Positions 3,877 through 55,679 of a stretch of 64,000 nucleotides of DNA are shown piece after piece. The notes beneath the pieces were generated by a model. The model worked only from the letters and a program-made list of their open reading frames with translations, ran no database searches and had not been told where the DNA came from. Numbering within the stretch: position 1 is the first letter of the stretch; every line of letters starts with the position of its first letter. Made by a program: the position numbers and the translations under genes. The DNA is taken from positions 822,528 to 886,527 of the forward strand of contig JAQTUX010000001.1 in NCBI GenBank assembly GCA_028707125.1, written 5' to 3'. Origin of the DNA: Candidatus Omnitrophota bacterium. GTDB lineage: Bacteria > Omnitrophota > Gorgyraeia > Gygaellales > JAQTUX01.

Positions 3877-4146
3877 ATGAGGGGGGTAGCAAATTTCTGC
3901 GACTATTTTGTCCTGGCAAGCGGCTCATCCACGCGCCAGGTAAAGGCGATCGCGGAAAACATAGGCGAGGGGCTTCAAAACAGCGGCGAAAAGGACTTCT
4001 CCATAGAGGGGCTATCGGAGAGCCTTTGGGTGCTGATTGACTCCAGGGATGTGATCGTCCATATATTCTACGCGCCGCTTCGCGGGTACTACGCCCTTGA
4101 AAAGTTATGGGCGGACGCGAAAAGGGTAAGGGTAAGCAAGAGATGA
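3877..4146 (+). CDS. rsfS: Ribosome silencing factor RsfS (Iojap); start probably upstream of annotated ATG
   Basis: DYFVLASGSSTRQVKAIAENI motif. Frame stays open upstream to ~3799 with conserved-looking LIAHLALDKKAEDLHVLD and AGGAGG at 3786-3791 but no canonical start codon. Confidence 0.75.
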   Translation: MRGVANFCDYFVLASGSSTRQVKAIAENIGEGLQNSGEKDFSIEGLSESLWVLIDSRDVIVHIFYAPLRGYYALEKLWADAKRVRVSKR

Positions 4147-5222
4147 GAGACCTTTATGAACTGATACGGCTGGTTAATTCAACCCATGACCTTAACAGGG
4201 TATTGAATATAATAACCCGCAAGGTTTCAAATATGGTGGATGCTAAGGTGTGCAGCCTGCGGCTTCTTGACCGCGACAAAAAAGAATTGATACTGCGCTC
4301 TTATCACGGCCCATACAGAAGGTCGCATCTTTCCAAGGGTAATCTCAAGATGGGTGAGTCCATATCCGGCAGGGCGATCAAGGAAAAGAAGGCGTATATC
4401 ATAGCCGACCTTTACAAGGATTCGCTTTATAAGTCCCCGGAGATCGCCAGGCACGAGGGGGTGCGCTCCCTCTTAACGGTCCCCCTTCTTGACAGGGGAA
4501 AGGCGCTCGGCGTCTTGAGCGTATATTCCGATAAGCCGAACAGGTACCACATGGATGACCTGCACCTGCTTTCAATAGTGGCATCCCAGGTTGCCGTTGC
4601 CATATCAAACGCCCGGCTCTTTCAGGAGATCGAGTCCAACTATATTAATACCGTAAAGGTGCTGGTGAATACGATAGACGCCAAGGATAGCTATATCTAC
4701 GGCCATTCCGAGAAAGTGGCGATACACTCTTTTGCCATAGCCAGAGAGCTGGACCTGAGCCCGGAGGAAAGGCAGGCGGTAAGGACCGCCGGTTTTCTGC
4801 ATGATATGGGAAAGATCTCCGTTGACAGCGCCATACTCAGAAAGAAAGGTTTCCTAAATGACGATGAGTGGCACGAGATAGAGAAGCATCCGGAGATAGG
4901 CGCGCGCATAATAAGCCAGATCCCCAACCTTAATCACCTGGCGCCGCTGGTGCTGCATCATCATGCCAGGTTTGGAGGCGGAGGCTACCCGGATAAAAAC
5001 TTGAAAGGCGCGGATATCCCCATAGGCGCGCGCATAATATCTGTAGCAGACGCTTACGAAGCCATGGTTTCCGCCAGGCCATACCGCGGCGCCCTTGAAC
5101 ACAGGATCGTCGTAGAAGAACTCAGAAGCCGTTCCAACAGCCAGTTTGATCCTCATATCGTCCACACCTTTCTAAAAGTACTTAAGAAAGATCAGGAACC
5201 GCAGGAAGTGAGCATTGTATAG
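4143..5222 (+). CDS. GAF-domain sensor fused to HD-GYP phosphohydrolase (putative c-di-GMP phosphodiesterase)
   Basis: GAF-like N-terminus; HD motif in FLHDMGK; HHHARFGGGGYP (GYP signature). Internal ATG at 4143 forms ATGA overlap with rsfS stop. Confidence 0.75.
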   Translation: MRDLYELIRLVNSTHDLNRVLNIITRKVSNMVDAKVCSLRLLDRDKKELILRSYHGPYRRSHLSKGNLKMGESISGRAIKEKKAYIIADLYKDSLYKSPEIARHEGVRSLLTVPLLDRGKALGVLSVYSDKPNRYHMDDLHLLSIVASQVAVAISNARLFQEIESNYINTVKVLVNTIDAKDSYIYGHSEKVAIHSFAIARELDLSPEERQAVRTAGFLHDMGKISVDSAILRKKGFLNDDEWHEIEKHPEIGARIISQIPNLNHLAPLVLHHHARFGGGGYPDKNLKGADIPIGARIISVADAYEAMVSARPYRGALEHRIVVEELRSRSNSQFDPHIVHTFLKVLKKDQEPQEVSIV

Positions 5223-5224
5223 GG

Positions 5225-6880
5225 ATGCGTAAGGACATCAAGGCAGTTATAGCCTCGAGCTTGAAGGAATCACTTCGGATCTTTCAAATCCCTCCCGAGA
5301 GGATCCGGTCTCTTTCCATACAGTTAGACATACCGAAGGATGAAAGCTTCGGGGATATTTCGTCTAACCTTGCGATGCAGCTCAGCAAGGACTTGAAACA
5401 GCAGGCGCGCTCCATAGCCGATTCGCTCGTAGAGCATCTGAAGCGCGATCAGCGCCTTATGCCGCCGAAAGGCCTTGTTAAGGATATAAAGGCGCAAGAC
5501 CCCGGATTTATCAATTTTTATTTAAGCGACGAATACTTCTATGGAAGGCTCCGCGACGCGCTCATCCTGTCCGGGCGTTTCGGCTCTTCTAAGTCAGGAA
5601 GGGGCAAAAAAGCGCTTATTGAGTTTGTGAGCGCCAATCCCACAGGGCCTTTGTCTGTGGCCCACGCCCGGCAGGCGGCAGTAGGCGATTCACTTGCCTC
5701 CATACTTGAATTTCTGGGTTTCAGGGTGACCAGGGAGTATTACCTGAACGATAAGGGCAATCAGATCAATATACTGGGAAGGTCGGTAATGCTGCGCGCG
5801 CGTGAACTTAAAGGAGAGAGCGTCGCCTTTCCCGAAGATCATTATCAGGGGGATTACATACGGGATATCGCTAAAGAGGTCATCGGTTTGGGCAGGGAAA
5901 ATGAAGGCGAGAAGTGGTTTTGCGATTACGCCGTAGAATATTTGATGGGTATTATAGGGGCTGAGTTGAGGGATTTCGGCACTGGGTTTGACGTATGGTA
6001 TTCGCAGGCGGCCCTGGAGAGATCGGGAAAGATCGAAAAGGCGATAGGGCATCTGAAGAAAAAGGGCTGCGTATATGAAAATGAAGGCGCCGTGTGGTTT
6101 CGGTCTACCTCCTTCGGTGACGACAAAGACAGGGTGATCATAAAATCCGACGGCTCTTACACCTATATTACCCCCGATATCGCCTATCATGAGGATAAAT
6201 TCAGGCGCGGCTTTGACTGGCTTATAAACCTCTGGGGCCCCGACCATCACGGATATATCGGCAGGATCAAGGCGGCGGTCGCCGCCCTGGGTAAGAATAA
6301 GGAAGCCCTTTCCCTGATCATCGTTCAACTTGCCAGCATATTCCGCGACGGCAAGCAGTTATTGATGTCCACGAGAAAGGGCCAGTATATAACGCTGCGG
6401 CAGGTCCTTGATGAAGTCGGCAGGGACGCCTCCAGGTTCTTCTTTCTTATGCGCAGGACATCAAGCCACCTTGATTTTGATATTGACCTTGCCAAAAAAC
6501 ATAGCCAGGAAAACCCGGTTTTTTATGTGCAGTACGCCCACGCCAGGATAAGCAGTATATTGAAAAACGCGCGGGCGGGTTTTAACCTTAAGCGGGCGGA
6601 TCTAAAGCTGCTTAAGCAAAAAGAAGAACTGTTTTTAATGAGGGCCATCAGCCGGTTCCCTTACGTGCTCGAGGTCTGCCTTAGCAGCCTTGACCCGTTT
6701 TTTGTGACGGAATATTTGAAGAGGATGGCGGAGGCATTTCATAAATTCTACGATAACCACCGGGTGCTTGGCGATGATAAGCGGCTGACAGAGGCGCGGC
6801 TGGCTCTGATAAAGGCGGCGCAGATAGTGTTGTCCAACGGGTTCCGGCTTTTAGGCATAAGCGCTCCGGAGAAGATGTAG
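5225..6880 (+). CDS. argS: Arginine--tRNA ligase
   Basis: ANPTGPLSVAHAR class I motif, C-terminal DALR anticodon-binding region, 551 aa. Confidence 0.9.
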   Translation: MRKDIKAVIASSLKESLRIFQIPPERIRSLSIQLDIPKDESFGDISSNLAMQLSKDLKQQARSIADSLVEHLKRDQRLMPPKGLVKDIKAQDPGFINFYLSDEYFYGRLRDALILSGRFGSSKSGRGKKALIEFVSANPTGPLSVAHARQAAVGDSLASILEFLGFRVTREYYLNDKGNQINILGRSVMLRARELKGESVAFPEDHYQGDYIRDIAKEVIGLGRENEGEKWFCDYAVEYLMGIIGAELRDFGTGFDVWYSQAALERSGKIEKAIGHLKKKGCVYENEGAVWFRSTSFGDDKDRVIIKSDGSYTYITPDIAYHEDKFRRGFDWLINLWGPDHHGYIGRIKAAVAALGKNKEALSLIIVQLASIFRDGKQLLMSTRKGQYITLRQVLDEVGRDASRFFFLMRRTSSHLDFDIDLAKKHSQENPVFYVQYAHARISSILKNARAGFNLKRADLKLLKQKEELFLMRAISRFPYVLEVCLSSLDPFFVTEYLKRMAEAFHKFYDNHRVLGDDKRLTEARLALIKAAQIVLSNGFRLLGISAPEKM

Positions 6881-15475: not shown

Positions 15476-17680
15476 ATGAAGGACAGGCATACGAGAGAGA
15501 TCAAGACAATACTTCTGCTTGCCTCAGGTATAATACTGCTGGCCAGCGTAATTTCTTATAATCCTTCAGACCTCGCTTTTTTCACCTCATCGCCGAATAT
15601 GCCCGCAAAGAATTTTGTGCGCGTATTCGGCGCTTATCTTTCAGCCGCGCTTTTTTTCCTTATAGGATGGGCCGCGTATGTCCTGCCCTTTCTCGTATTT
15701 TACTGGGCAGCCAGGGTGTTCAAGGGCAAAGCGCCGAATTTACGGGCGGTTAAGGTCCTGGGCGCGGCAGTGCTGTTTATGTCCTTGAGTTCTTTGCTGG
15801 CGATGTGCGGCATAAGGGAGGGCAATGCTATTTTTGCCAGGGGGGGCCTGTTAGGTTTTGCCTCTTCGGCGTTTATGGTGAGATACTTCGGGAATTTCGG
15901 CGCGGCCACCGTTTTTCTCGCCCTCGGCACGCTTTCCTTTATACTGGCTACCGACTATCTTGCTTCTCATATATTGTCCGGGTTCAGCACGCTTTACGCC
16001 TCTTTGCTTTCCATCTTGAATTATGGTAATAGAGTGATCAGGGTCTCTCCGCGGTTTAAGAAGATCAACGCCAGCAGGCCGCCCGAAGAGGCAAGGGCAG
16101 AGGAAGCGGCAAAGCCGCGTCCGGCCGCCGCCAGGGAGGAATTGCCGTTAAAGCCGAGGATAGAGATCAAGGTGAAAGAGCAGAAACAGCCGGCGAAAAT
16201 AAAGATCCCCGAAATGAAGATCGGCGACTATAAGCTTCCTTCTCTGGCGCTGTTGGATTCTCCTCCGCCAATAGGCGAGCGTCAGTTAAGAGGCGATCTT
16301 ACTTCTAACGCGAGGATACTGGAGGAGACCCTGTCTGACTTCGGCATATCCGTGAAGGTCACCGATATAGAAAGGGGCCCTGTCATTACCCGCTATGAAT
16401 TGGAGCCCGCGCCCGGCGTCAAGGTGCAGAAGATCACAAGCTTGGGAGATGACATAGCGCTTGCCCTGAAAGCCCAGTCGGTGAGGATAGTGGCGCCCAT
16501 ACCCGGTAAGGCGAGAGTGGGCATTGAGGTGCCCAACGCGCAGAGCAGCTTAGTATACTTACAGGAAGTTCTTTCTTCTAAAGAATACCTTGCTTCTGAT
16601 TCCAAGCTTACCCTTGTTTTAGGAAAAGATATAGCGGGGAAATCCGTGATAGCAGACCTCGGGGAGATGCCGCATCTTCTTATCGCCGGGACTACCGGCT
16701 CGGGAAAGACGGTTTGCGTCAATAGCTTGATCATGTCCATCCTGTTCAAGTCCACCCCGCGCGAGGTAAAACTGTTGATGGTTGACCCAAAAATGGTTGA
16801 GCTCGCCCCTTATAACGGGCTGCCGCATTTGCTCTGTCCGGTGGTTACAAACGCGAAAAAGGCGTCCAACGCCCTGAACTGGGTCGTGGCGGAGATGGAG
16901 GAGCGCTATAAACTGCTGGCAGGTTTAGGCGTAAGGAATATAGCTTCTTATAATGAAAAGTCCGAGTCGCTTATGCCTTATATAGTGGTAATAATAGATG
17001 AACTGGCCGACCTTATGGTGGTCGCCCAGGAACAGATCGAAGACGCGATAACGCGCCTGGCGCAGCTTTCCCGCGCCGTAGGCATTCATCTTTTGCTGGC
17101 GACGCAGAGGCCGTCCGTTGACGTCATAACCGGCGTCATAAAGGCGAATTTTCCCGCGAGGATCTCTTTTCAGGTCGCCTCCAAGGTCGATTCAAGGACG
17201 GTGCTTGACGCTAACGGAGCGGATAAGCTTTTGGGCAGGGGGGATATGCTTTTCCTGTCGCCCGGAGAGTCAAAATTGATCAGGGCGCAGGGCAGCCTTA
17301 TAAAGGATAAAGAGATAGAGCGCGTAGTTGATTTCATAAAATCACAGAGCCAGCCCGTATATGAAGAGGCGATCCTGAAGGAACAGGAGAGGTCTTCCGT
17401 ATCGGGAGGCATTAAAGACGAGCTTTACGATGAGGCGGTGCGGCTGATAATGCAAAGCGGCCACGCCTCGGTTTCCATACTGCAGAGAAGAATGCGGTTG
17501 GGTTATACCCGTGCCGCCCGCCTTATAGATATGATGGAGGAGAGCGGATTGCTCGGGCCTTATCAGGGCTCCAAGCCAAGGGAAATCCTGATCAACAGGG
17601 AGGAGTGGCTTAGAGAGAACCTCAATAAAGAAGGCGCCTCAAAGGATGAAGACCAGATAGGCGCCGCGGAGGAAAACTGA
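15476..17680 (+). CDS. ftsK: DNA translocase FtsK
   Basis: N-terminal TM segments, linker, FtsK motor with Walker A GTTGSGKT, C-terminal gamma winged-helix. Confidence 0.9.
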   Translation: MKDRHTREIKTILLLASGIILLASVISYNPSDLAFFTSSPNMPAKNFVRVFGAYLSAALFFLIGWAAYVLPFLVFYWAARVFKGKAPNLRAVKVLGAAVLFMSLSSLLAMCGIREGNAIFARGGLLGFASSAFMVRYFGNFGAATVFLALGTLSFILATDYLASHILSGFSTLYASLLSILNYGNRVIRVSPRFKKINASRPPEEARAEEAAKPRPAAAREELPLKPRIEIKVKEQKQPAKIKIPEMKIGDYKLPSLALLDSPPPIGERQLRGDLTSNARILEETLSDFGISVKVTDIERGPVITRYELEPAPGVKVQKITSLGDDIALALKAQSVRIVAPIPGKARVGIEVPNAQSSLVYLQEVLSSKEYLASDSKLTLVLGKDIAGKSVIADLGEMPHLLIAGTTGSGKTVCVNSLIMSILFKSTPREVKLLMVDPKMVELAPYNGLPHLLCPVVTNAKKASNALNWVVAEMEERYKLLAGLGVRNIASYNEKSESLMPYIVVIIDELADLMVVAQEQIEDAITRLAQLSRAVGIHLLLATQRPSVDVITGVIKANFPARISFQVASKVDSRTVLDANGADKLLGRGDMLFLSPGESKLIRAQGSLIKDKEIERVVDFIKSQSQPVYEEAILKEQERSSVSGGIKDELYDEAVRLIMQSGHASVSILQRRMRLGYTRAARLIDMMEESGLLGPYQGSKPREILINREEWLRENLNKEGASKDEDQIGAAEEN

Positions 17681-17683
17681 TAT

Positions 17684-18406
17684 ATGGATACCATCGGCAT
17701 TGTCTTAAGACAGAAGAGGGAGGAACTCGGTTTAAGCCTGAGCGACGCGGCGAAGAAGACCAAGATCCATATAAATATCCTGAAGGCGCTGGAAGAGGAC
17801 AGGTTTGAAGGCATAAGCCCCGTATACGTCAAAGGATTCTTAAAGATCTATTCCCGCCTGCTTGGCCTGAATGAGAGAGAGGTAATAGACAAATATTCTT
17901 CTCTTCAGGTGGAACAGGAGACATTTGATTTTGAAAAACAAAAAGAACCCAAAAAAGAAGATACGGCCTTAAGCAAGATCGATTACCGCCTTGCCGCTAA
18001 GGCCGCTGCCGGTGTCGTTGTTTTGTTATTGCTGTTTTTTATGGTTTCTAAAGCCGCCAGGTTTATCGGCTCTCACCGCGCCAGGAAGCCTGTCAGGGTA
18101 AGAACTGCCTCTCCAAGAGCCGGTCTCATCCCCATAAATAAAACCAATATATTAAAATTAAGCGTGCTCGTAAAGGAGGACAGCTGGGTCAAGGTGAAGG
18201 CGGACGGCAGGACGGTCTTTCAGAATGTGCTTAAACGCGGGAAGACCGAGGTCTGGCAGGCAAAAGATAAAATAGAGCTCTCCCTGGGCAATGCCGGCGC
18301 GACAGAACTTGAGGTAAACGGCAAGATCATTTCCGGCCTGGGCAGGCGCGGACAGGTGATCAAGTCGATCCTGATCACAAAAGAGGGGCTGGAAATAAAA
18401 GGTTAA
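17684..18406 (+). CDS. RodZ-like HTH/transmembrane cytoskeleton protein
   Basis: N-terminal XRE-type HTH, single TM, C-terminal DUF4115-like beta domain. Confidence 0.6.
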   Translation: MDTIGIVLRQKREELGLSLSDAAKKTKIHINILKALEEDRFEGISPVYVKGFLKIYSRLLGLNEREVIDKYSSLQVEQETFDFEKQKEPKKEDTALSKIDYRLAAKAAAGVVVLLLLFFMVSKAARFIGSHRARKPVRVRTASPRAGLIPINKTNILKLSVLVKEDSWVKVKADGRTVFQNVLKRGKTEVWQAKDKIELSLGNAGATELEVNGKIISGLGRRGQVIKSILITKEGLEIKG

Positions 18407-18410
18407 TTTA

Positions 18411-18534
18411 TAATGACCAATGTCCAAGCTCCAATGACGAATGAAATCACAATGACCCAAATCCCAAATAGAAAATACAAATTGGGTATTGGGATTTGGA
18501 CATTCATTCGTCATTGGGATTTGGTAATTGTGAC
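18411..18534. repeat. Heptamer-periodic imperfect palindromic intergenic element A (CCCAAAT / ATTGGGA units plus CCAATGACGAATGAA inverted 15-mer)
   Basis: Long imperfect inverted repeat read directly; fills the whole rodZ-like/rimO spacer. Confidence 0.6.
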
Positions 18535-18538
18535 TTAA

Positions 18539-19810
18539 ATGAAGAGCGAAATGAAAGTCGGTATATTAAGCTTAGGCTGCCCGCGCAACCTGGTGGATTC
18601 CGAAACCATGCTGGGGCGGCTTAAGTCCAAAAACCGCAGGATCGTAGATATAAAAGATGCCGACGTGGCGATCGTGAACACCTGCGCGTTCATTGAGGAT
18701 GCTAAAAGAGAATCGATAGACGCCATCCTGAATTTGATAGGCCTGAAGAGGGAAGGCGCGATCAGGAAGATCATTGTCGCCGGCTGCCTGGCACAGCGTT
18801 ACCCCGAAGAGCTTAGAAAAAACTTCAAAGAGGTAGACGCGTTTGTCGGTACATTAAATATCAATCATAACGAGATCAACCGTTATCTGCTCACCCCGCG
18901 CCACTCTGTTTATCTCAAGATATCCGAAGGATGCGCTAATAAATGCAGTTACTGCGTGATACCCGCCATAAAAGGGCCTTTTGTCAGCAGGGGTATGGCG
19001 TCTATAATCAATGAAGTGCGGCGCCTGGACAGGCTCGGCGTAAAGGAGCTCAATATAGTCGGCCAGGACATAACGCTCTACGGCAGGGATATCTTCGGCA
19101 GGCCGTCTTTGGCCGGATTGTTAAAGAAGATCGTTGCCGCGGCCGACAATATCAAGTGGATACGCCTGCTTTATATGAATCCGGAGCGGCTTGACGATGA
19201 GCTGATAGAGGTTATAGGCGGCGAGCCGAAGATCTGTAAATATATTGATATGCCCCTTCAGCATATCAATGACAGGATATTGAAATTGATGAACAGGAAC
19301 ACGAGCAGGAAGCGGATAACGTCTTTGATCAGGAAGATAAGAAAGGCCGTGCCGGGCGCCGCCTTGAGGACTTCGCTGATAGCCGGTTTTCCCTCCGAGA
19401 CAAAAAAGGAATTTGAGGAACTGGTTGATTTTATCGGAGAGGTTAAATTTGAGCGCCTGGGAGCGTTTATCTATTCCCGGGAGGAAGGCACGGCAGCGTA
19501 TCATCTTAAGGGCCAGGTCCCTCAGAAAACGAAAGAGGAGCGGTTTGACAGGATCATGGCCGCGCAGCAGGAGATAGCCAAAGGAGTAAACTCCGGGTTC
19601 ATAAACAAGGAGATAGACGCGTTGATCGAAGAGAAAGACGCGAAGGATGCCGGCCTGTACCTGGCGCGGTCTCAGTATGACGCGCCTGAAGTGGACGGGA
19701 TCGTGTATGTGCGTTCTCAAAAAAAGCTTAAGCCCGGAGATCTGGTAAGGGCCAGGATAGAAGATACGCTTGAATACGATTTAGTGGCGCGATATGAACC
19801 TTCCCAATAA
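18539..19810 (+). CDS. rimO: Ribosomal protein S12 methylthiotransferase RimO (MiaB-family radical SAM)
   Basis: N-terminal MTTase domain LGCPRN, radical SAM CANKCSYC, C-terminal TRAM. Confidence 0.8.
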   Translation: MKSEMKVGILSLGCPRNLVDSETMLGRLKSKNRRIVDIKDADVAIVNTCAFIEDAKRESIDAILNLIGLKREGAIRKIIVAGCLAQRYPEELRKNFKEVDAFVGTLNINHNEINRYLLTPRHSVYLKISEGCANKCSYCVIPAIKGPFVSRGMASIINEVRRLDRLGVKELNIVGQDITLYGRDIFGRPSLAGLLKKIVAAADNIKWIRLLYMNPERLDDELIEVIGGEPKICKYIDMPLQHINDRILKLMNRNTSRKRITSLIRKIRKAVPGAALRTSLIAGFPSETKKEFEELVDFIGEVKFERLGAFIYSREEGTAAYHLKGQVPQKTKEERFDRIMAAQQEIAKGVNSGFINKEIDALIEEKDAKDAGLYLARSQYDAPEVDGIVYVRSQKKLKPGDLVRARIEDTLEYDLVARYEPSQ

Positions 19811-20372
19811 ACTTACTATTTCCAGAATTTTCCTCACCTTTATATTCCTCTATCTTTTATTCCGCCAAAGCATCGGCGGCAAAGCCGCCGCCCTTGTAAT
19901 ATTCGTATTCGCGGCAGCGTCCGATCTGTTTGACGGATGGATCGCCAAAAAGCGCAATATGGTCACCGATTTCGGCAAGATAATGGACCCCATAGCGGAT
20001 AAGATACTGGTGCTTGGGGCGTTCATTGCCTTCGTGAAGCTCGATCTGATAGATGTGTGGATGGTCGTGGTGATCATAGTAAGGGAGTTGATAATCACTC
20101 ATCTTCGGCTTTATGCCCTGACGCAGAAAAAAGTAATGGCCGCGGAAAGGGCGGGTAAGCATAAGACGGTATCGCAAATGGTAGCCATATTCACGATCCT
20201 TTGCTACCTTTTATTCAAGGAAATACTGGTAGGTTTTGGTATATGGGGCGCCGGCTGGGAGCGTTCCTTCAGCGTAGGCATATACCTGCTTATGCTGGTC
20301 ACGGTGGTGCTTACTCTTATTTCCGGCCTGTCTTATTTCTGGCGCAATAGAAAACTTATAGTATCAAAATAA
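19794..20372 (+). CDS. pgsA: CDP-diacylglycerol--glycerol-3-phosphate 3-phosphatidyltransferase
   Basis: CDP-alcohol phosphatidyltransferase motif DLFDGWIAKK...GKIMDPIADK. Confidence 0.85.
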   Translation: MNLPNKLTISRIFLTFIFLYLLFRQSIGGKAAALVIFVFAAASDLFDGWIAKKRNMVTDFGKIMDPIADKILVLGAFIAFVKLDLIDVWMVVVIIVRELIITHLRLYALTQKKVMAAERAGKHKTVSQMVAIFTILCYLLFKEILVGFGIWGAGWERSFSVGIYLLMLVTVVLTLISGLSYFWRNRKLIVSK

Positions 20373-21899: not shown

Positions 21900-21907
21900 A
21901 AACTTGT

Positions 21908-22065
21908 CTTCGGGGTAGGGTGAGATTCCCGACTGGTGGTTGCGCAGAAAGCGCACACCGGCGCTTCCTTTAGCGCCGGGTGTTATAGCCCACGAGTTCG
22001 CTGATAGGCGAGCAGAACCGGTGAAATGCCGGTGCCAATGGTAAAGTCCAGATGGAAGAAGGCAG
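21908..22065 (+). promoter_or_regulatory. FMN riboswitch (RFN element) aptamer
   Basis: 5' CTTCGGGGTAGGGTGAGATTCCCGACTGGTGGT and 3' CCAATGGTAAAGTCCAGATGGAAGAAGG match conserved RFN segments; located upstream of ribBA. Confidence 0.75.
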
Positions 22066-22092
22066 GCGGCATCAGGTTTGATGTCGGGAAGC

Positions 22093-22133: not shown

Positions 22134-23336
22134 ATGAAATTCAATGAGATTCCGGAGATAATTGAAGAACTGAAATCAGGCAGAATGGTCATCGTTGTTG
22201 ATGATGAGGACAGGGAGAATGAAGGGGACCTTGTAATGGCCGCCTCATCTGTCAACGCCGAGGCGATAAATTTTATGGCCACGCACGGCAAAGGCCTGAT
22301 CTGCGTGCCTATGGAGGCGGGGCGGCTGAACGAATTGAATATCCACCCGATGTCTTCATACAACGACAGGTTCAGGACCGGCTGGATGGTCTCTGTGGAT
22401 GCCGCTTCAGGCATCACTACCGGAATATCCGCCGCGGACAGGGCAAGGACGGTACAGGTCTTGATCGGCCCCGGATCGCGGCCCGAAGACATAGTGCGCG
22501 GCGGGCATATCTTTCCGCTTAAGGCAAGCAACGGCGGCGTGCTTGTGCGCGCGGGCCATACAGAGGCATGCGTTGATCTGATGCGGCTGTCTTCTTTGTA
22601 TCCTGCAGGCGTGATCTGCGAGATCATGAACTCGGACGGCACAATGGCCCGGTTCAATGATTTGGCAGAGTTTTCCAGGAAGCACGGTTTAAAGATATGC
22701 AGCATAGCCGGTCTTATCCAGTACCGCCGCCGCTCTGAGAAGCTGGTTAAAAGGGCGGCGCGGGCCAAGCTCCCCACGGAATTCGGCGAGTTTGATCTGA
22801 TACTTTACAGCACCGAGATAGACAGTAGCTATCACACGGCTTTGGTAAGATCGCTTAAGGCCAACGATAGTGATCCGGTTTTAGTCAGGGTGCACTCGGA
22901 ATGTTTGACAGGCGACGTGTTCTCTTCTTTAAGATGCGACTGCGGCAGGCAGCTTAAGATCGCCATGGAGATGATAGGCAAGGCAGGCAGCGGCGTAATA
23001 TTGTATATGAACCAGGAGGGCAGGGGTATCGGACTTCTGGGTAAGATAAAGGCCTATGCCCTGCAGGACGGCGGTATGGATACGGTTGAAGCAAACCACG
23101 CATTGGGATTCGGCGCGGACCTGCGGGATTATGGTATAGGCGCGCAGATCCTGGTAGACCTGGGCATTAAGAATATACGGCTGATCACCAATAATCCAAA
23201 AAAAATTGTGGGGTTGGAGGGTTATGATTTGAAGGTGGTCGAAAGGGTGCCGCTTGAGATAAAGCCGAACCCCGCGAATTACAAGTATCTTAAGACAAAG
23301 AAAGAGAAATTGGGGCACGAACTGACATTGGAGTAA
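22134..23336 (+). CDS. ribBA: Bifunctional 3,4-dihydroxy-2-butanone-4-phosphate synthase / GTP cyclohydrolase II
   Basis: DHBP synthase N-half (RENEGDL) and GCHII C-half with CxCGxxxxC zinc motif. Confidence 0.95.
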
Positions 23337-26850: not shown

Positions 26851-26928
26851 CGGGGAGTAGCTCAGTTTGGCTAGAGCGTTTGGTTCGGGACCAAAAGGCC
26901 GTGGGTTCAAGTCCCACCTCCCCGACCA
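26851..26928 (+). tRNA. tRNA-Pro (anticodon CGG)
   Basis: Cloverleaf folded by hand: 7-bp acceptor CGGGGAG/CTCCCCG, U8A9, D-stem GCTC/GAGC, anticodon loop TTCGGGA, T-loop TTCAAGT, encoded CCA. Confidence 0.85.
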
Positions 26929-44099: not shown

Positions 44100-44104
44100 G
44101 GAAA

Positions 44105-44249
44105 TAAAACCCTAAACCCGAAACCCTAAACTCTAAATAAACCCAAATGTTAAAACCACAAACCCAAAACTTGATTATGGTTGCTGTTTGTAGTTTTGTG
44201 TTTTGAGTTTGTAGTTTGTTTAGTGTTTAGAGTTTAGTGTTTAGAGTTT
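44105..44249. repeat. Heptamer-periodic imperfect palindromic intergenic element B (CCCTAAA-like array facing TTTAGDG-like array)
   Basis: Left arm AAACCCT AAACCCG AAACCCT AAACTCT; right arm GTGTTTA GAGTTTA GTGTTTA GAGTTTA; occupies the whole murD-ftsW spacer. Confidence 0.6.
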
Positions 44250-44255
44250 AAGAAT

Positions 44256-47238: not shown

Positions 47239-48610
47239 GCGCGTGCATTTCATAGGCATAGGCGGCATAGGCATGAGCGGGATCGCCAGCATACTGCTTA
47301 AAAAGGGCGAGAGCGTAAGCGGTTCCGACCTTAAGCTCAGCGCGGTAACCGATAAATTGAAGAAAGAGGGCGCCAGGGTCTCTCAGGGCCATTCCGCGGC
47401 TAACGTGGGATACGCCGACATAGTGGTCTATTCCTCGGCCATCAAGGAGGAGAATCCTGAATTAAAAGAGGCGCGCAGGCGCGGCATTGAGATATACAGC
47501 CGCGCGAGGATGCTGGCTGAGATAATGCTAGGTCATAAAGTCGTCACAGTGACCGGCGCGCACGGAAAGACCACCACCACATCCCTTATCTCGCACCTTT
47601 TGCAATACGCGGGATTATCGCCGACGGTGGCGGTGGGAGGCATACTGGCCAACATAGAAGATAACGCTTCCTTCGGCAACGGCTCGTTTTTTGTGGCTGA
47701 GGCGGACGAATCAGACGGCTCTTTCCTCTGTTATTCGCCGGATTATTCCGTGATAACCAACCTGGATTTTGAGCATATGGATTTCTATGGGACAGAGGAA
47801 AAACTCTTTGCCGCGTTCAGCGAGTTCATAAACAAGACCCGCGACAACGGCATTATCTTTGCCTGCGGCGACGACCGCAATTTAAGGCAGATGCTGGCAA
47901 AGAGCGGCAAAAAGAGCGTCCTGTTCGGCCTGGATGGGAATACGGATGTATATGCCGGGGATATTGTCCTGAACGGTTTTTCCTCGGAATTTGACTGTTA
48001 CGCTAAAGGCGCTTTCCTGGGAAGGTTCCATCTGCCTTTGGCGGGAAGGCACAATGTCTCAAACGCCCTGGCTGTAATAGCGGTAGGCAGCGAGGCCGGC
48101 GTAAAGGCCGATGTGATGAAAGAGGCCATGGCCTGTTTTCGCGGCATAGGCAGGAGGTTTCAGGTGAGGGCGGAATTAAAAGATGAGCGGATAATCGTAG
48201 TGGAAGATTACGGCCATCACCCCACTGAAATAAAGCGGACGCTGGAGGCGGTTAAGTCCTGCAAGTATGACAGGATAATCTGCGCCTTTCAGCCGCACAG
48301 GTACACGAGGACGCGGCTGTTGATGGACGAGTTTACGAAATGCTTTGACGCGGCAGACCACCTGATACTTACCGATATTTACGCGGCGTCGGAGCAGCCG
48401 ATTGAAGGCATTGATTCGCGGGTCTTATATAGAAATATACAGAGCAGGTTGGGCGGCAGGGTGGAATTCGCGCGCAAGGCAGAGATATCCGCGCGGATCG
48501 AGCGGATCTTGCGGCCCGGAGATTTTGTTATTATACTCGGCGCCGGAGATATCACAGAGGTATGCGATGAATTGGTGGAAAGGATTGGAAGGAAGGCTGA
48601 GGTTAGATGA
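47231..48610 (+). CDS. murC: UDP-N-acetylmuramate--L-alanine ligase
   Basis: GIGGIGMSG N-terminal motif, P-loop GAHGKTTTT. Confidence 0.9.
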   Translation: MNRRVHFIGIGGIGMSGIASILLKKGESVSGSDLKLSAVTDKLKKEGARVSQGHSAANVGYADIVVYSSAIKEENPELKEARRRGIEIYSRARMLAEIMLGHKVVTVTGAHGKTTTTSLISHLLQYAGLSPTVAVGGILANIEDNASFGNGSFFVAEADESDGSFLCYSPDYSVITNLDFEHMDFYGTEEKLFAAFSEFINKTRDNGIIFACGDDRNLRQMLAKSGKKSVLFGLDGNTDVYAGDIVLNGFSSEFDCYAKGAFLGRFHLPLAGRHNVSNALAVIAVGSEAGVKADVMKEAMACFRGIGRRFQVRAELKDERIIVVEDYGHHPTEIKRTLEAVKSCKYDRIICAFQPHRYTRTRLLMDEFTKCFDAADHLILTDIYAASEQPIEGIDSRVLYRNIQSRLGGRVEFARKAEISARIERILRPGDFVIILGAGDITEVCDELVERIGRKAEVR

Positions 48611-49454
48611 GCCGCTGCGGCGCCACAGCAGTTTTCGCATAGGCGGCAAAGCGCGCTTCTGGTATGAGCCGAAGGATATAGAGGGCTTGAGAGAGGCGCT
48701 TAGGCGGATCAAACAACATTCCATAAAAGCTGCCATAATCGGCGCCGGCAGCAATATCTTATTTGATGATAGTGGATTTAAAGGGGCCTGCCTGCGGCTT
48801 TGCTCGCCGGGATTCAGCGCGATCAGTAAGGCGGGAAGCAGTTCTATTGTCTGCGGCGCTGGCGCGATGCTCAAGGATATCGTGAGTTTTGCCGGGAGCC
48901 ATAATATGGGCGGGGCAGAGTTCCTGGCAGGCATACCCGGGACCCTGGGCGGCGCTATTATCATGAACGCGGGAGTAGAGAGCAGGAACATTTCCGATCT
49001 GGTCTCTGAAGTCGATCTTATGGATTATTCAGGCCGCGTCAGGGCGGTCAAGAAAGAAAACATCGCTTTCGCTTACCGGCGCTCTCGCCTGGGCAGGTAT
49101 ATAGTGCTTGGGGCTAAATTAAGGCTTTTCGCGCGCGAAGGGGAGTTGATCGGCAGGGATGTCAGGCGCATCATTGACAGGAGGCTCAAGACGCAGGACT
49201 ACAGCCATCCCAGCGCCGGGTGCGTATTCAAGAACCCTCCTTCTGATTCAGCCGGCCGGCTCATAGATATCTGCGGCCTTAAAGGAGAAAGGGTCGGCGG
49301 GGCAGAGGTTTCCAGCCGCCACGCCAATTTTATAATAAACAGGGGCAGGGCCAGATCGCGGGACGTTATACGGCTGATGAATATAATAAAAGGCAGGGTA
49401 AAGGACGAGTTCGGGATATGCTTAGAGCCGGAAATAAAGATATTGGGAAATTAA
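48567..49454 (+). CDS. murB: UDP-N-acetylenolpyruvoylglucosamine reductase
   Basis: FAD-binding PCMH domain (RIGGKA), MurB C-terminal domain. Start trimmed to ATG at 48567 (MNWWKG), a 44-nt overlap with murC. Confidence 0.85.
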   Translation: MNWWKGLEGRLRLDEPLRRHSSFRIGGKARFWYEPKDIEGLREALRRIKQHSIKAAIIGAGSNILFDDSGFKGACLRLCSPGFSAISKAGSSSIVCGAGAMLKDIVSFAGSHNMGGAEFLAGIPGTLGGAIIMNAGVESRNISDLVSEVDLMDYSGRVRAVKKENIAFAYRRSRLGRYIVLGAKLRLFAREGELIGRDVRRIIDRRLKTQDYSHPSAGCVFKNPPSDSAGRLIDICGLKGERVGGAEVSSRHANFIINRGRARSRDVIRLMNIIKGRVKDEFGICLEPEIKILGN

Positions 49455-52319: not shown

Positions 52320-52347
52320 TCTTTACCATCTTCCAAGGCGTTTCCCT

Positions 52348-52367
52348 CTACACACTTACGTGTGTAG
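52348..52367. repeat. REP-type hairpin (CTACACAC-TTAC-GTGTGTAG) overlapping tnpA stop codon
   Basis: Perfect 8-bp stem; the TAA stop of tnpA lies in the loop. Confidence 0.6.
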
Positions 52368-52727
52368 AATCCTTTGGCTGCGGATGTATTCTTGCACGCT
52401 TTCTAATTCTACTATATCCACTTCTCTAAAACCATATCGCCTTGCCCAGAAATGCTTAGGATTGTAATTCCCCACACGTAAGTGTGGGGTGTTCTCCAAT
52501 AGTTTCTTACCAGAAACAGATTTTAGTGTTCTTACCATATCAGCCAATTCTTTCCTGTCTTTTGCTTCCAGCAACATATGCACGTGGTTCTTATTGGATT
52601 CCATTTCCAAAATATTATAGTTCTTTCGTTGTGCTACCTCTAGAAAAGAGTTCTTTGCTATCTCTTCAGCTTTCGCTTCCAGTGTTTCTCTTCTGCGCTT
52701 TGTCACGAACCAGATATGGTAATACAT
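52356..52727 (-). CDS. tnpA: IS200/IS605-family Y1 (HUH) transposase TnpA / REP-associated tyrosine transposase-like
   Basis: HUH motif HVHMLL, C-terminal catalytic Tyr in SVQEYIRSQ, ~123 aa; REP hairpins at gene end and inside it. Confidence 0.8.
   Translation of the reverse strand: MYYHIWFVTKRRRETLEAKAEEIAKNSFLEVAQRKNYNILEMESNKNHVHMLLEAKDRKELADMVRTLKSVSGKKLLENTPHLRVGNYNPKHFWARRYGFREVDIVELESVQEYIRSQRILHT
52470..52489. repeat. REP-type hairpin in inverted orientation (CCCCACAC-GTAA-GTGTGGGG), inside tnpA coding sequence
   Basis: Perfect 8-bp stem; encodes TPHLRVG of TnpA. Confidence 0.55.
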
Positions 52728-52806
52728 GGTTTTTGCGGAAATTACCCCCCTCTACTATATATGACGCAAAAATCAGCGTTTTACTTGCAAGAAAGTTTAA
52801 ATATTC

Positions 52807-53042
52807 TATGAACCCGCTGGCTTCCTCGCTCATATCGGTTTTGCCCCGAATGGTATTCAAAGAGGGCCGGCAAAGGTCTCTCGCAGCTCGGTGCTTGCGG
52901 AACTCGCCCTTTTTGCTCCAGCAAAAAGGGCTCAGACAGTCCTCGCACTTTGGGCCTTATAGGCCACAAAGTTCCCTCGCTGCTCGAGCTGCTTTGCCTA
53001 AAACCTCAAATTCGCTCGTAAGCCAGCGGGTTCATTTACGAG
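52807..53042. repeat. MITE-like element with ~24-bp terminal inverted repeats (ATGAACCCGCTGGCTTcCtCGCTC) and internal 11-bp perfect hairpin
   Basis: TIRs read directly at ~52808-52833 and ~53016-53040; internal GCCCTTTTTGC-TCCA-GCAAAAAGGGC. Confidence 0.45.
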
Positions 53043-53177
53043 ATGCTCGCTCGTAGGAATATCAAAAATAACTAAGCAATCAGAACTTATTACGGTATAA
53101 TAGATAGCAGCAAGGAGAACCGTCCCCGATCCAATATTTATATTACAAGAAAGCATAATGTCGACTAATTATTTTCT

Positions 53178-53205
53178 TGACATATAATATTAAATGTGTT
53201 AATCT
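53178..53205 (+). promoter_or_regulatory. Sigma70-like promoter of island operon (TTGACA-16-TAATCT) with AAAGGAGG RBS downstream
   Basis: Read directly in AT-rich spacer upstream of 53232. Confidence 0.45.
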
Positions 53206-53231
53206 GTTAACATCTATGAAAGGAGGCAAGC

Positions 53232-53432
53232 ATGCAAAAACAAAAAAATGACACTGAAAGAGATATGGTAAAACATCTGAAGAAATTAGTTATGCTTAGC
53301 GAAAATTCCTTGATTATAAGTCTATCTCAACAAGATGTCCCTCATCAGACGATACGAAAAGTTGCCGGAGTTGATATGTCTCGTGTCACCTCGTTGCTTC
53401 GCGGGGTAAAGTCTGCAAAAAAGACTGATTAG
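53232..53432 (+). CDS. Small putative HTH protein, paralog 1 of 4 (66 aa)
   Basis: Hydrophobic helix then helix-turn-helix-like HQTIRKVAGVDMSRVTSLLRG; aligns with the other three small ORFs. Confidence 0.5.
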   Translation: MQKQKNDTERDMVKHLKKLVMLSENSLIISLSQQDVPHQTIRKVAGVDMSRVTSLLRGVKSAKKTD

Positions 53433-53448
53433 CGAAAGGAGTACTACT

Positions 53449-53613
53449 ATGCAAAACACTGACAAAATCATTGAGGAATTAGTGGCTATAAAGAAGCTGC
53501 TTATGCTTCAATTAATGCGCGATGACGTGGACGCCTCCGTAATTGGGAAGGTACTAGAACTAACCCCTACGCGAATACGACAAATAATACCAGTAAAAGA
53601 CGTACGCAAATAA
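53449..53613 (+). CDS. Small putative HTH protein, paralog 2 of 4 (54 aa; below ORF-track cutoff)
   Basis: MQNTDKIIEELVAIKKLLMLQLMRDDVDASVIGKVLELTPTRIRQIIPVKDVRK; AGGAG RBS 8 nt upstream; same architecture as neighbours. Confidence 0.5.
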   Translation: MQNTDKIIEELVAIKKLLMLQLMRDDVDASVIGKVLELTPTRIRQIIPVKDVRK

Positions 53614-53628
53614 TAAGGAGCCTTCATA

Positions 53629-53856
53629 ATGAAACGAACTAGGAAAATTGGCGCAGAAGACGAAGTTTCAGTAAAATTGGGCATCTTAATCCGGTTGTTT
53701 ATTGAATTTCTGATAACATCGGAAAATAAGAACTTTAATACTGGCAACGTTGCAAGAATCTTAAAATCACTCGATATTACACCAACCGAAATTGCAAGAA
53801 TGTTAGGTAAGAAATCTGTAACTGATGTTGCACCATTTCTTTATCGTAAGAAGTAA
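53629..53856 (+). CDS. Small putative HTH protein, paralog 3 of 4 (75 aa)
   Basis: LGILIRLFIEFLI helix then NVARILKSLDITPTEIARMLG HTH-like segment. Confidence 0.5.
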   Translation: MKRTRKIGAEDEVSVKLGILIRLFIEFLITSENKNFNTGNVARILKSLDITPTEIARMLGKKSVTDVAPFLYRKK

Positions 53857-53869
53857 GGGGTAGATACCA

Positions 53870-54769
53870 ATGTCTACTTATATTCAGCAAGTAACAGACG
53901 TTAGATCAAATTCAAGTGACCAAATACACTTCGCAGCAAAATTGATTAGGCGTTCCAGACAAAAAAAGGCCGTGTTTAAGGCAATCTACCGTGGTAAAAA
54001 ACAGATTAAATCCATTTCTGAAATAGAGAAAGTCACCGATTTAAATAATATCCAAATATTAAAAGCTGGTGGGACCTTAGCTGGGAATGGTATTGTCAAA
54101 AAAGTAAAAAAGGGATACCAAAAAGATACATTTTATGCACAACATTATCGCAAAATATTGTCTCTCGCCTCAAATAGTAAAAAGTTGAAACAATTCCCAA
54201 CAAAAACACAACCCTATCTCAATTCTAATATAGGCACAACTAGTAGAATATCGCTTAAAAAACCTGCGCAAAAAGTAAGATTTATTACAATTGATGATAT
54301 CTATTCATTTAGAAAAATTAAAGATAATAAATCAAAAAATAATATAGATGGAACATTTCTTTCCAAACTTCCTGAGAATGAAATCAAAAGTGGAATCGCA
54401 AAGATCATTAGGGAAAGCGGAATATTTAAAGACTGGGCAGGAGAAAAAAATGATCTATTTACAACAAAAGTAAGCATTGGATCAAAAAGGGTGGCTGCTG
54501 TTTTTGCGTTTAAAGGAAAAGGCACAAAAGGCATTTTAACATTAGATAAAATGGGAAAAAGAGCAGACCAAATTCAGCGACTATTTGACAGCCAATCTTC
54601 TCAACTATTTATAGTGGTTTATAAAGGACAAATAGGCCAAGTTATTCTTGAGCAGATGTATGCTTACGCTATTGCGAAGGCTCTTTACGGTAAAGAGATC
54701 TATTACGGTATTATTGATGGAGATGACTTGATGCGGCTAATTTCATCTTATAAGAACTGTTTTGAATAG
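53870..54769 (+). CDS. Hypothetical K-rich 299-aa protein, no recognisable domain
   Basis: AT-rich codon usage; N-terminal possible winged-helix-like segment, low-complexity K/N/S linker, C-terminal alpha/beta region (possible nuclease-like fold, unproven). Confidence 0.5.
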   Translation: MSTYIQQVTDVRSNSSDQIHFAAKLIRRSRQKKAVFKAIYRGKKQIKSISEIEKVTDLNNIQILKAGGTLAGNGIVKKVKKGYQKDTFYAQHYRKILSLASNSKKLKQFPTKTQPYLNSNIGTTSRISLKKPAQKVRFITIDDIYSFRKIKDNKSKNNIDGTFLSKLPENEIKSGIAKIIRESGIFKDWAGEKNDLFTTKVSIGSKRVAAVFAFKGKGTKGILTLDKMGKRADQIQRLFDSQSSQLFIVVYKGQIGQVILEQMYAYAIAKALYGKEIYYGIIDGDDLMRLISSYKNCFE

Positions 54770-54780
54770 GAGGCGACATA

Positions 54781-54990
54781 ATGAAGAAAAAGCGCAGTAT
54801 AACTAAAAAAAGTCTGTCTGATTCCGATCGTTTAGATATAATCATATCTTTACTAAGTCACTTACTAACTGTTCAGTTATATAAATCAGGCGCGACAATG
54901 GATGATATATGTAGGCATTTACATATTGCAAAAACATCCGTGGTCGATATGTTAAAAGGTTTCAAGCGAAAGCTCGGTAATAATTCGTAA
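54781..54990 (+). CDS. Small putative HTH protein, paralog 4 of 4 (69 aa)
   Basis: IIISLLSHLLTVQL helix then TMDDICRHLHIAKTSVVDMLKGF. Confidence 0.5.
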   Translation: MKKKRSITKKSLSDSDRLDIIISLLSHLLTVQLYKSGATMDDICRHLHIAKTSVVDMLKGFKRKLGNNS

Positions 54991-55080
54991 ACAAGACGGT
55001 TACAATTAATCTTGGACCAATAACATAATGGGGACGGTTCTCATTAGTTTTAGTTGCTGAATCATAACAGACCTAGTAGC

Positions 55081-55180
55081 CGCTTTTCGTAATTAGCTAA
55101 TTTCCCGTAACTTACAGAACAAATATTTACCCCACACTTACGTGTGGGGAATGGCAATCCCTGATTGTCTCAGCGGGTGG
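55081..55180 (+). repeat. Repeat unit U1: CGCTTTTCGTAATTAGCTAATT head (12-bp perfect palindrome AATTAGCTAATT) + REP hairpin (55130-55149) + CTGATTGTCTCAGCGGGTG tail
   Basis: Read directly; second copy U2 ~175 bp downstream. Confidence 0.55.
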
Positions 55181-55255
55181 CTTTGGACGGGGCGCCCCGC
55201 CCCGCGCGGAGTTCTCCCGTCCGTTATGGTAATGAATTCTATGAAGAATGGCAGA

Positions 55256-55400
55256 CGCTTTTCGTAATTAGCTAATTCCCCCATAACTCTATATAAGGAT
55301 ATCACAAGATGTGATATCCTTTATTGTTTCTAATGCTATTGGAGGGTACCCCACACTTACGTGTGGGGAATGACAATTCTGCACTGATTGTCTCAGCGGG
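55256..55400 (+). repeat. Repeat unit U2: same head, extra perfect hairpin AAGGATATCAC-AAGAT-GTGATATCCTT (55295-55321), REP hairpin (55349-55368), tail merging into 230-bp repeat copy 1
   Basis: Read directly. Confidence 0.55.
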
Positions 55401-55613: not shown

Positions 55614-55638
55614 ATTTATATAAGTTATATTGTATAAT
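55609..55638 (+). promoter_or_regulatory. Consensus sigma70-like promoter (TTGACA-18-TATAAT) for MNT/HEPN operon
   Basis: Perfect hexamers read directly at the end of repeat copy 1. Confidence 0.55.
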
Positions 55639-55679
55639 TAAGTTGCGAATACTTAGCGGGATAAAAAAATTAGGCAAAT

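Follow-up and report, generated by a model that had tools for sequence, protein, structure and literature searches.

In the 64-kb window analyzed here (the whole stretch of 64,000 nt from a Candidatus Omnitrophota genome), a rodZ-like gene and rimO are separated by a 132-nt spacer (positions 18407 to 18538) that is occupied by an imperfect palindrome, which we call element A. The rodZ-like gene (17684 to 18406, plus strand; TAA stop codon at 18404 to 18406) encodes a protein with the Pfam domains HTH_25 and RodZ_C, and rimO (18539 to 19810, plus strand) encodes one with the domains UPF0004, Radical_SAM, and TRAM. There is no clear Shine-Dalgarno sequence at rimO, and pgsA and then pgpA follow it on the same strand. 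The RodZ-like protein and FtsW of the window are 100% identical to NCBI proteins of an Omnitrophota metagenome-assembled genome (MAG), and the best RimO match among the GTDB species representatives has 61% identity.

The core of element A runs from 18410 to 18534 and consists of 7-nt units, as inverted-repeat, folding, and lag-7 periodicity tests all indicated. Read on the plus strand, its 5′ arm (18410 to 18469) is 70% A+C and consists of ATAATGA CCAATGT CCAAGCT CCAATGA CGAATGA AATCACA ATGACCC AAATCCC AAAT; an A-rich apical loop (AGAAAATACAA, 18470 to 18480) leads into the 3′ arm (18481 to 18534), which is 70% G+T and consists of ATTGGGT ATTGGGA TTTGGAC ATTCATT CGTCATT GGGATTT GGTAATT GTGAC. 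The window background for such arm composition is 48% (standard deviation, 7%). A perfect 15-bp inverted repeat, with its left half on the plus strand at 18431 to 18445 (CCAATGACGAATGAA) and its right half at 18503 to 18517 (TTCATTCGTCATTGG), is nested within 28-nt arms of 82% complementarity, and the heptamers include a tandem pair of CCCAAAT at 18456 to 18469 and ATTGGGT ATTGGGA at 18481 to 18494. A first-pass annotation of this DNA had described a heptamer-periodic imperfect palindrome of ~125 bp with a perfect 15-bp pair, CCCAAAT and ATTGGGA heptamers, an AC-rich left arm, a GT-rich right arm, and no T-run, and all of this was borne out (the longest T-run in the element is TTT). The annotation had also called the element strand-asymmetric. 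The compositional bias of the arms is real, but as a property that distinguishes the strands, the term is misleading because the reverse complement shows the identical AC-then-GT layout.

The predicted minimum free energy of element A was −46.9 kcal/mol for RNA of the plus strand (z = −6.0), −45.9 kcal/mol for RNA of the minus strand (z = −5.5), and −28.6 kcal/mol for single-stranded DNA (z = −5.7), with none of 200 shuffles as stable in any of the three cases. The RNA structure suspected at first pass is thus far more stable than its shuffles on both strands. Identity at lag 7 reached 0.55 to 0.57 in element A against a background of 0.247 (standard deviation, 0.064), and the two strongest lag-7 loci of the whole 64 kb were element A and element B, a hairpin of heptamer arrays that lies between murD and ftsW (44100 to 44255, with its core at ~44107 to 44249). 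We used lag-7 periodicity and word-array scans instead of a gap-free hairpin finder, which missed element A; composition-only AC-then-GT scans missed it at strict settings and returned noise at loose ones. At the gathering threshold, Rfam 15 found nothing at element A and, across the window, only a flavin mononucleotide (FMN) riboswitch (98 bits; 21902 to 22067, upstream of a gene at 22134 to 23336) and a tRNA gene (26851 to 26925). When the threshold was relaxed, the best matches to element A were generic long-hairpin models of plant microRNA precursors, which scored 30 bits against cutoffs of at least 100.

Comparison with related genomes points to an origin of element A in the lineage of the window. 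In a strain of ~96% identity, which stands at about the species boundary to the window (L085, the Logan assembly of SRR33086907), the flanking DNA matches at 96.9% upstream of the element and 94.9% downstream, the rodZ TGA stop codon overlaps the TTG start codon of rimO, and element A is absent, such that 147 nt of the window (18405 to 18551) replace 6 nt of that genome. The rodZ-rimO spacer of a genus-level relative (L086, RodZ identity of 66%) is 7 nt long. Across ~30 Omnitrophota loci, the pairing of rodZ and rimO is kept, with the two genes mostly overlapping or 0 to 10 nt apart; several of these loci carry unrelated palindromic inserts at the junction, and none carries element A. With L085, L086, and the other outgroups lacking the element, the most parsimonious reading of these alignments is that element A is a recent insertion in the window's own lineage, one that would have split ancestrally overlapping rodZ and rimO genes. 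The event also remodeled the start region of rimO, since the first codons are changed (MKSEMKVG in the window versus (M)IREKIG in L085) and a second in-frame ATG at 18551 is a better fit to the N termini of relatives. The rodZ-rimO junction is an insertion hot spot in Omnitrophota: unrelated palindromic elements lie about 100 to 250 nt upstream of rimO in different genomes (L011, L012, L015, L016, L018, L021, L024, and L026).

These comparisons bear on the possibility that element A is a lineage-specific cis-regulatory RNA that tunes rimO and pgsA, for instance by attenuation, by RNase III cleavage, or by gating translation, perhaps through alternative pairing of the start region. Such a role would fit the strong fold on the mRNA strand, the lack of a clear Shine-Dalgarno sequence at rimO, and the 90% complementarity between GACATTCATT (18499 to 18508) and AATGAAAGTC (18550 to 18559), the latter spanning the second ATG. 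However, the fold is equally good on the nontranscribed strand and as DNA, the same architecture recurs at unrelated junctions, and element A is missing from the ~96% strain and from all of the other relatives compared. We consider a regulatory role of this kind improbable. The first-pass annotation had raised a regulatory RNA structure as one of its two suggestions; as a conserved function it found no support, because no Rfam family reached the threshold and the junction is not conserved in relatives, with element A absent at the orthologous position in L085, L086, and the ~30 Omnitrophota loci.

The boundaries of the element offer a further view of how it arrived. The sequence TTAA stands at 18403 to 18406, where it overlaps the rodZ stop codon, and again at 18535 to 18538, and the two are candidate copies of a target-site duplication. 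Deletion of 18407 to 18538 (the insert plus one TTAA) leaves GGTTAA|ATG, a natural stop/start junction. A target-site duplication at TTAA is possible on this basis. Complementarity between the arms of element A is only ~80% and its units are not alike, whereas divergence of the flanks from those of L085 is just 3 to 5%, which argues that the palindrome was imperfect before it was inserted. From these alignments we infer that the palindrome was old on arrival and would have been imported as a unit rather than grown in place.

An independent assembly provided a different kind of evidence. The Logan assembly of SRR22315508 contains the identical flanking genes, and its contigs end inside both element A and element B. 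At element A, the left contig ends at 18439 (33 nt after the rodZ stop codon) and the right contig starts at 18504 (35 nt before the rimO ATG); at element B, the corresponding positions are 44136 (37 nt after the murD stop codon) and 44220 (36 nt before the ftsW ATG). The repeat limits implied by these breaks, about 18410 to 18533 for element A and about 44107 to 44249 for element B, coincide with the ends of the palindromes, and the breaks lie symmetrically, 33 to 37 nt inside each end. We take the Logan assembly to have been built with k = 31. Since the two arms have no 31-mers in common, a palindrome alone would not break the assembly graph; if k-mers inside the element occurred at more than one locus, de Bruijn penetration of k − 1 plus a few bases would be expected at all four ends. 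The breaks are thus suggestive of element-internal k-mers that occur at other loci too. A flip-flop inversion between the 15-bp repeats was considered as the cause of the breaks and rejected, the left break at 18439 falling 6 nt before the end of the repeat.

The same contigs speak to the question of whether element A is an assembly artifact, namely, a foldback chimera in the MAG. Its inner 64 nt (18440 to 18503) are indeed missing from the independent contigs, but both outer arms, including both halves of the 15-bp repeat, are reproduced there with the correct flanks. Neither the order of the genes nor their reading frames are disturbed on either side, and at least 120 similar elements, described below, are present in other assemblies. 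An artifact is hardly credible in the face of these findings.

Element B resembles element A in design. Its left-hand units are of the CCCTAAA type and its right-hand units read TTTAGAG/TTTAGTG, with lag-7 identity of up to 0.76, and its RNA has a predicted minimum free energy of −41.1 kcal/mol on the plus strand and −48.3 kcal/mol on the minus strand. It folds better on the noncoding strand because C·A mismatches of the mRNA strand become G·U pairs there. In these right-hand units, another base consistently stands in for the middle G of TTTAGGG, and no G-runs are left. Element B is absent from L088, a genus-level relative (JGI sample 3300033150; FtsW identity to the window, 73%) in which murD and ftsW overlap. 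At the site of element B in the ~96% strain (L089, 1 to 49, upstream of ftsW), we found a different array, ACACATT AAACTTT ACACATT ACACAGA, and the Logan contig of that strain is also broken at its murD-ftsW array. The presence of a different heptamer array at this site suggests that the elements at such junctions are replaced fast. The first-pass annotation had grouped elements A and B by their shared style. Element B did prove to be a hairpin of the same style, but the two show no sequence homology beyond composition; given shared architecture and behavior with unlike sequences, we regard them as two families of one class rather than as one family.

A closer counterpart of element A occurs in L088, where a 180-nt hairpin (4012 to 4191; minimum free energy, −54.2 kcal/mol; z = −4.1) lies between ftsW and murG, genes that overlap in the window and so leave no spacer there. 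It has the words CCAAATCCCAAAT, CCAATGACC, and TCATTCG..ATTGGGATTTG in common with element A, along with 17 9-mers against a noise level of 4 to 7. A homologue of the L088 element with ~80% identity over ~135 nt is present in L135 in a different context. Nested in the right arm of the L088 element at ~4112 to 4141 is a GC-rich mini-hairpin of 27 to 29 nt (GTCCCGGCCTGTAAAGGCAACAGCCTGGGG), which is missing from the L135 homologue and is thus an insertion within an insertion.

We then scanned metagenomes once with the pattern CCAAATCCCAA N{25,55} TTGGGATTTG, which fits both element A and the L088 element. At least 120 loci with the core stem of element A matched, against a few to a few tens of matches expected by chance according to a rough estimate made by hand rather than by a tool. 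Nearly all of the matches listed have an array of CCCAAAT-like 7- to 8-mers in the 5′ arm and a complementary ATTTGGG array in the 3′ arm. Flank GC content among the matches listed is 0.60 to 0.68 for most and 0.36 to 0.53 for 14, and several of the low-GC ones mix in AATGACC/GGTCATT units, like element A. Outside the selected core, the match listed that comes nearest to element A is L152 (GGTCATTGGGATTTGGTCATTGGGA versus CGTCATTGGGATTTGGTAATTGTGA), on a contig labeled both Paceibacterota and Parachlamydiales; other host labels among the matches listed are Acidobacteria/Vicinamibacterales (L156), Omnitrophota (L145), and Magasanikbacteria (L136). Viral contigs gave two matches for the pattern and two for its reverse, too few for use as an orientation control: the two forward matches are genuine hairpins, and both reversed matches fall on one coding-like locus without heptamer arrays. 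Two 113-nt copies in L092 are 100% identical, lie 368 nt apart, and have unlike flanks; L136 and L200 have in common a ~125-nt element with ~95% identity, again in unlike flanks. Identical or near-identical copies in different flanks indicate that the unit can be copied.

Gene context was tallied for 89 distinct high-GC loci from the matches listed, with genes called by third-position GC content. The neighboring genes are convergent in 24 cases, codirectional in 22, and divergent in 2, and the elements lie a median of 10 nt from the facing stop codon, 55% of them within −5 to +15 nt. Other matches listed lie inside the rpsN-rpsH operon (L192) and between tRNA genes (L101 and L191). Additional, unselected elements in those contigs have the C-rich arm on the 5′ side in ~12 cases and on the 3′ side in 2.

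This distribution, concentrated just past stop codons and between convergent genes, is what might be expected of an intrinsic, possibly bidirectional, transcription terminator, and so is the arrangement in which UUU ends every unit of the 3′ arm and AAA occurs in every unit of the 5′ arm. Element A, however, lacks the combination of a GC-rich stem and a T-run, and neither a terminator nor a promoter consensus is present; a terminator scan of 17600 to 19000 returned no sites. Moreover, elements A and B are both intraoperonic, the one directly upstream of rimO-pgsA-pgpA and the other of ftsW-murG, where promoter consensus sequences are lacking, and the member between rpsN and rpsH is likewise intraoperonic. 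We consider a terminator very unlikely.

The spacer also contains an open reading frame (ORF), and the first-pass statement that element A has none was wrong. A 41-codon ATG ORF (MTNVQAPMTNEITMTQIPNRKYKLGIGIWTFIRHWDLVIVT, 18413 to 18538, plus strand) spans the distance from rodZ to rimO; it starts 7 nt past the rodZ stop codon, and its TAA, which lies in the right-hand TTAA, adjoins the rimO ATG. We regard this ORF as probably fortuitous. Were it to encode a genuine protein of 41 residues or to serve as a leader, its translation would melt the hairpin and restore rodZ-rimO coupling, and the tight fit at both ends (TAA|ATG at rimO), the hydrophobic C-terminal half of the product, and the fact that such a bridging ORF is expected in only ~3.5% of random spacers with equal dinucleotide statistics (P of about 0.035) could be cited for it. 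Yet searches returned neither an identical recorded gene nor a Pfam match, and there is no clear Shine-Dalgarno sequence; the polar-then-hydrophobic pattern is the automatic outcome of an AC-rich arm followed by a GT-rich arm; and element B has stop codons in all frames, while the A-like element of L088 has only a 15-codon ORF. A genuine coding function is therefore highly unlikely. The ORF could help ribosomes through the hairpin, but its statistical support is weak.

Hairpins made of other heptamers turned up as well. One of GACACNN units lies at 6413 to 6503 of L010 (Omnitrophota), a GTTTCTG/CCAGAAA hairpin of reversed polarity lies at 1 to 140 of L064 (a PVC-group genome), and several arrays, also of reversed polarity, lie at 267 to 1393 of L033 (a deltaproteobacterium). 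The 7-nt foldback design is thus not tied to one unit.

Such hairpins, arising in separate lineages from unrelated heptamers, might mean that element A originated locally, through slippage of heptamers and strand-switch (quasi-palindrome) templating of one arm on the other, without transposition, and that the likeness among members reflects a common mutational mechanism. The different array at the element B site of the ~96% strain is consistent with this idea, as is the observation that the high-GC members of a single contig resemble one another in style with only about 70 to 80% identity. Heptamer simple repeats are, in addition, overrepresented in bacteria, and closely related bacteria differ in the length of these repeats (Rehm et al. 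2015, PMC4692102). Local growth would nonetheless have had to turn 6 nt into 147 nt at element A while the flanks diverged by only 3 to 5%. Fresh expansion is also disfavored because slippage creates identical units, and those of element A are unlike one another and its arms mismatched. The exact 113-nt copies and the 95%-identical 125-nt copies in unrelated flanks, together with the recurrence of the same specific words across phyla, argue in the same direction. We judge local origin to be unlikely for element A.

The explanation that we favor is that element A is probably a recently acquired, noncoding, nonautonomous foldback repeat resembling a MITE (miniature inverted-repeat transposable element) or a repetitive extragenic palindromic (REP) sequence, that it was inserted ready-made, and that any effect of the resulting intercistronic stem-loop is a by-product. 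The dispersed MITE/REP-like family proposed at first pass is supported, insofar as element A is absent from L085, has a counterpart in L088, resembles at least 120 other loci, and belongs with elements that exist as identical or near-identical copies; what did not stand is a single family containing both A and B. The units of element A have a CCAA/TTGG core and are mostly of the CCAATGA/TCATTGG and CCCAAAT/ATTTGGG types. The element would have been copied as a unit from another locus and placed, already an imperfect palindrome, between the rodZ stop and the rimO start, possibly at TTAA. It belongs to a broad class of heptamer hairpins in several phyla, which normally carry the A-runs in the 5′ arm and the T-runs in the 3′ arm whichever strand is read. 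Since rimO, pgsA, and pgpA follow without a recognizable promoter, element A is presumably transcribed within the rodZ-rimO-pgsA-pgpA message, where it would form a hairpin of ~50 bp. That hairpin most likely breaks the translational coupling of rodZ and rimO and, by analogy with REP sequences, may plausibly be cut by the double-strand-specific RNase III or impede 3′ exonucleases. It would be neither an efficient terminator nor a ligand-sensing regulator, and any effect on expression would follow from the insertion rather than from a conserved function.

Several points weigh against this explanation. Element A is single copy within the window, with no second copy seen there, and no transposase or RAYT partner was identified in a scan that covered one island, at 52320 to 56664. 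The argument from contig breaks is indirect, and a loss of coverage at the hairpin could be an alternative cause of the breaks or a contributor to them. The target-site duplication is ambiguous, as the TTAA sequence is its own reverse complement and L085 has TTGA at the empty site; members are inconsistent in this respect, the L088 element being flanked by AATG/AATG and the L092 copies having no duplication. The modest identity among high-GC members of one contig, noted above, must be counted here too, and slippage and arm-to-arm templating may generate some members locally. Finally, we infer every one of the RNA-level steps.

A broader proposition, which we put forward only tentatively and consider doubtful, is that the CCAA-core hairpins are one foldback family that spread horizontally over Acidobacteriota, Omnitrophota, and Patescibacteria by means of machinery that recognizes hairpins or single-stranded DNA, with polarity fixed by a role at the RNA level in either direction of transcription. 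If this were true, the elements would be iterated weak terminators or stabilizers acting as intercistronic or 3′-end hairpins, and the long-noted excess of heptamer repeats in bacteria would be explained as well.

The window and its relatives contain other repeats. A low-GC island of ~4.3 kb (52320 to 56664; GC content, 0.38 to 0.42) lies between ftsA and a yggS-like gene, which are adjacent in L088; the ORFs scanned in it had no significant Pfam match and no transposase domain. The palindrome CCCCACACTTACGTGTGGGG occurs three times in the island (~52467 to 52486, 55131 to 55150, and 55350 to 55369), and a direct repeat of ~230 nt with 94 to 100% identity (55384 to 55634 and 56405 to 56634) flanks an ORF on the minus strand (55670 to 56080). 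At a distance of 7 kb, the beginning of this direct repeat recurs as a perfect inverted copy of 30 nt (GTTCTGATTGTCTCAGCGGGTGACGCCGAG; 63569 to 63598 versus 56402 to 56431), within a GC-rich intergenic region (63379 to 63744) that also holds a palindromic repeat of the GTCATTGCGAG...GCAATCTC type resembling the rodZ-rimO junction inserts of L016 and L018. In L086, a MITE-like repeat with the ends GCAAATAGAAAATGTCAG...CTGACATTTTCTATTTGC and the core GTTCCACCTCGGAGGTGGAAC is present twice within 20 kb (5108 to 5275 and 19616 to 19840), and the same core lies directly past the rodZ stop codon in L087 (1216 to 1236). In the gene map of the window, an ORF (48402 to 49454) is present at the murB position.

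For annotation, these results mean that the rodZ-rimO spacer should be recorded as a repeat, being an insertion and not a conserved regulator. Hairpins of this design are found again and again in operons with essential functions (dcw, ribosomal protein, atp, and groE), in hosts as distant as Acidobacteria, Omnitrophota, Patescibacteria, and Xanthomonas. Heptamer hairpins vary between strains of one species and break short-read assemblies; when metagenomes of uncultured lineages are assembled, they are in practice one reason for broken contigs. The searchable motif CCAAATCCCAA...TTGGGATTTGG makes questions of mobility, polarity, and operon expression testable.

Element A belongs to a little-studied but already described kind of bacterial intergenic repeat hairpin, which forms a multiphylum class. 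A string search of the literature found no paper with GGGATTTGGGATTT or AAATCCCAAATCCC. The cyanobacterial STRR repeats are reportedly tandem intergenic heptamers, mainly in direct arrays, as Mazel and colleagues are said to have described in 1990, and we take the STRR2 heptamer TTGGTCA to be the same as the GGTCATT/AATGACC unit of element A. Very small mobile repeats nested in heptamer hairpins are likewise said to have been described by Elhai and colleagues in 2008, and the mini-hairpin nested in the L088 element resembles such inserts; the phylum is a different one.

Direct heptamer repeats of the TAACTGA type are known from Beggiatoaceae, Cyanobacteria, and Bacteroidetes (MacGregor 2015, PMC4679880). 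They are like the class of element A in being intergenic arrays of heptamers that are patchily distributed across phyla and occur within operons, including those of ribosomal proteins, and, like element A itself, they adjoin genes without a Shine-Dalgarno sequence. Unlike element A, the TAACTGA arrays are direct, lie just upstream of start codons, have an inverted partner in 1 of 170 cases, and form no hairpins (PMC4679880).

REP sequences and REPINs are mobilized by RAYT transposases (Bertels & Rainey 2011, PMC3116915; Di Nocera et al. 2013, PMC3733652). They resemble the class of element A in being short, noncoding intergenic hairpins of roughly 100 nt that lie past stop codons or in operons; the presence of REP sequences, like that of element A, differs between strains, and effects on mRNA stability are known for REP. 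Unlike them, element A has no unit palindrome of 20 to 40 nt and no GTAG or CGTC head, its units being nonpalindromic heptamers: GTAG is absent, and CGTC occurs once, midway through the 15-bp repeat and not at the head of a unit. A RAYT gene, too, was not seen in the one window island that was scanned (52320 to 56664).

Bacterial MITEs include Correia/NEMIS, RUP, and Nezha (reviewed by Delihas 2011, PMC3184786). Like element A, they are 100 to 200 nt long, AT-rich relative to the genome, noncoding, bounded by inverted-repeat ends, intergenic, and variable between strains. Element A shows the small size (~125 nt), the inverted ends, and the lack of supported coding capacity. MITEs are cotranscribed, and their identical copies in different flanks are matched in the class of element A by those of L092. 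Unlike a MITE, element A is entirely one foldback of tandem short units, with no unique DNA between terminal repeats, and its architecture is in that respect nearer to that of the eukaryotic foldback (FB) transposons, to which it may be likened.

The closest parallel is to the heptamer repeats of Xanthomonas, (GGGAATC)n, and of Nostoc, GGGGA(C/T)T, which have the consensus GGGANTN (Rehm et al. 2015, PLoS One, PMC4692102). The Xanthomonas arrays are 89 to 93% intergenic, lie a mean of 28 nt past the upstream ORF, are underrepresented between divergent genes, and occur inside groES-groEL, atpA-atpG, and atpD-atpC; 70 to 75 cases per genome consist of two inverted arrays, 21 to 67 nt apart, with the potential to form a stem-loop, and the paired inverted arrays lie 3 to 30 nt after stop codons (PMC4692102). 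Their length differs between close species, and their function "remains to be elucidated" (PMC4692102). Like these pairs, element A has tandem 7-nt units in each arm, arranged as inverted arrays that form a stem-loop, and its GGGATTT unit fits GGGANTN; it is intergenic, starting 1 to 4 nt past the rodZ stop codon, and its class is rare between divergent genes. The differences are that element A mixes CCAATGA-type with CCCAAAT units, that the hosts belong to different phyla, and that exact copies in different flanks indicate unit-wise mobility in its class, which the Xanthomonas report does not describe. The Xanthomonas class is also defined by quadruplex potential (at least four intact G-tracts), whereas element A has three GGG runs (in GGGTATT, GGGATTT, and GGGATTT only, with one gap of 22 nt) and element B has none in its G+T arm; a quadruplex reading of the two elements was rejected for want of G-runs. 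The C-rich arm is 5′ in element A, opposite in G/C polarity to Xanthomonas, in which the G-array comes first on the plus strand. The Xanthomonas pairs and the class of element A nevertheless agree in that A-runs mark the 5′ arm and T-runs the 3′ arm, and this common polarity suggests, by analogy, that a constraint at the level of RNA or single-stranded DNA may act on both.

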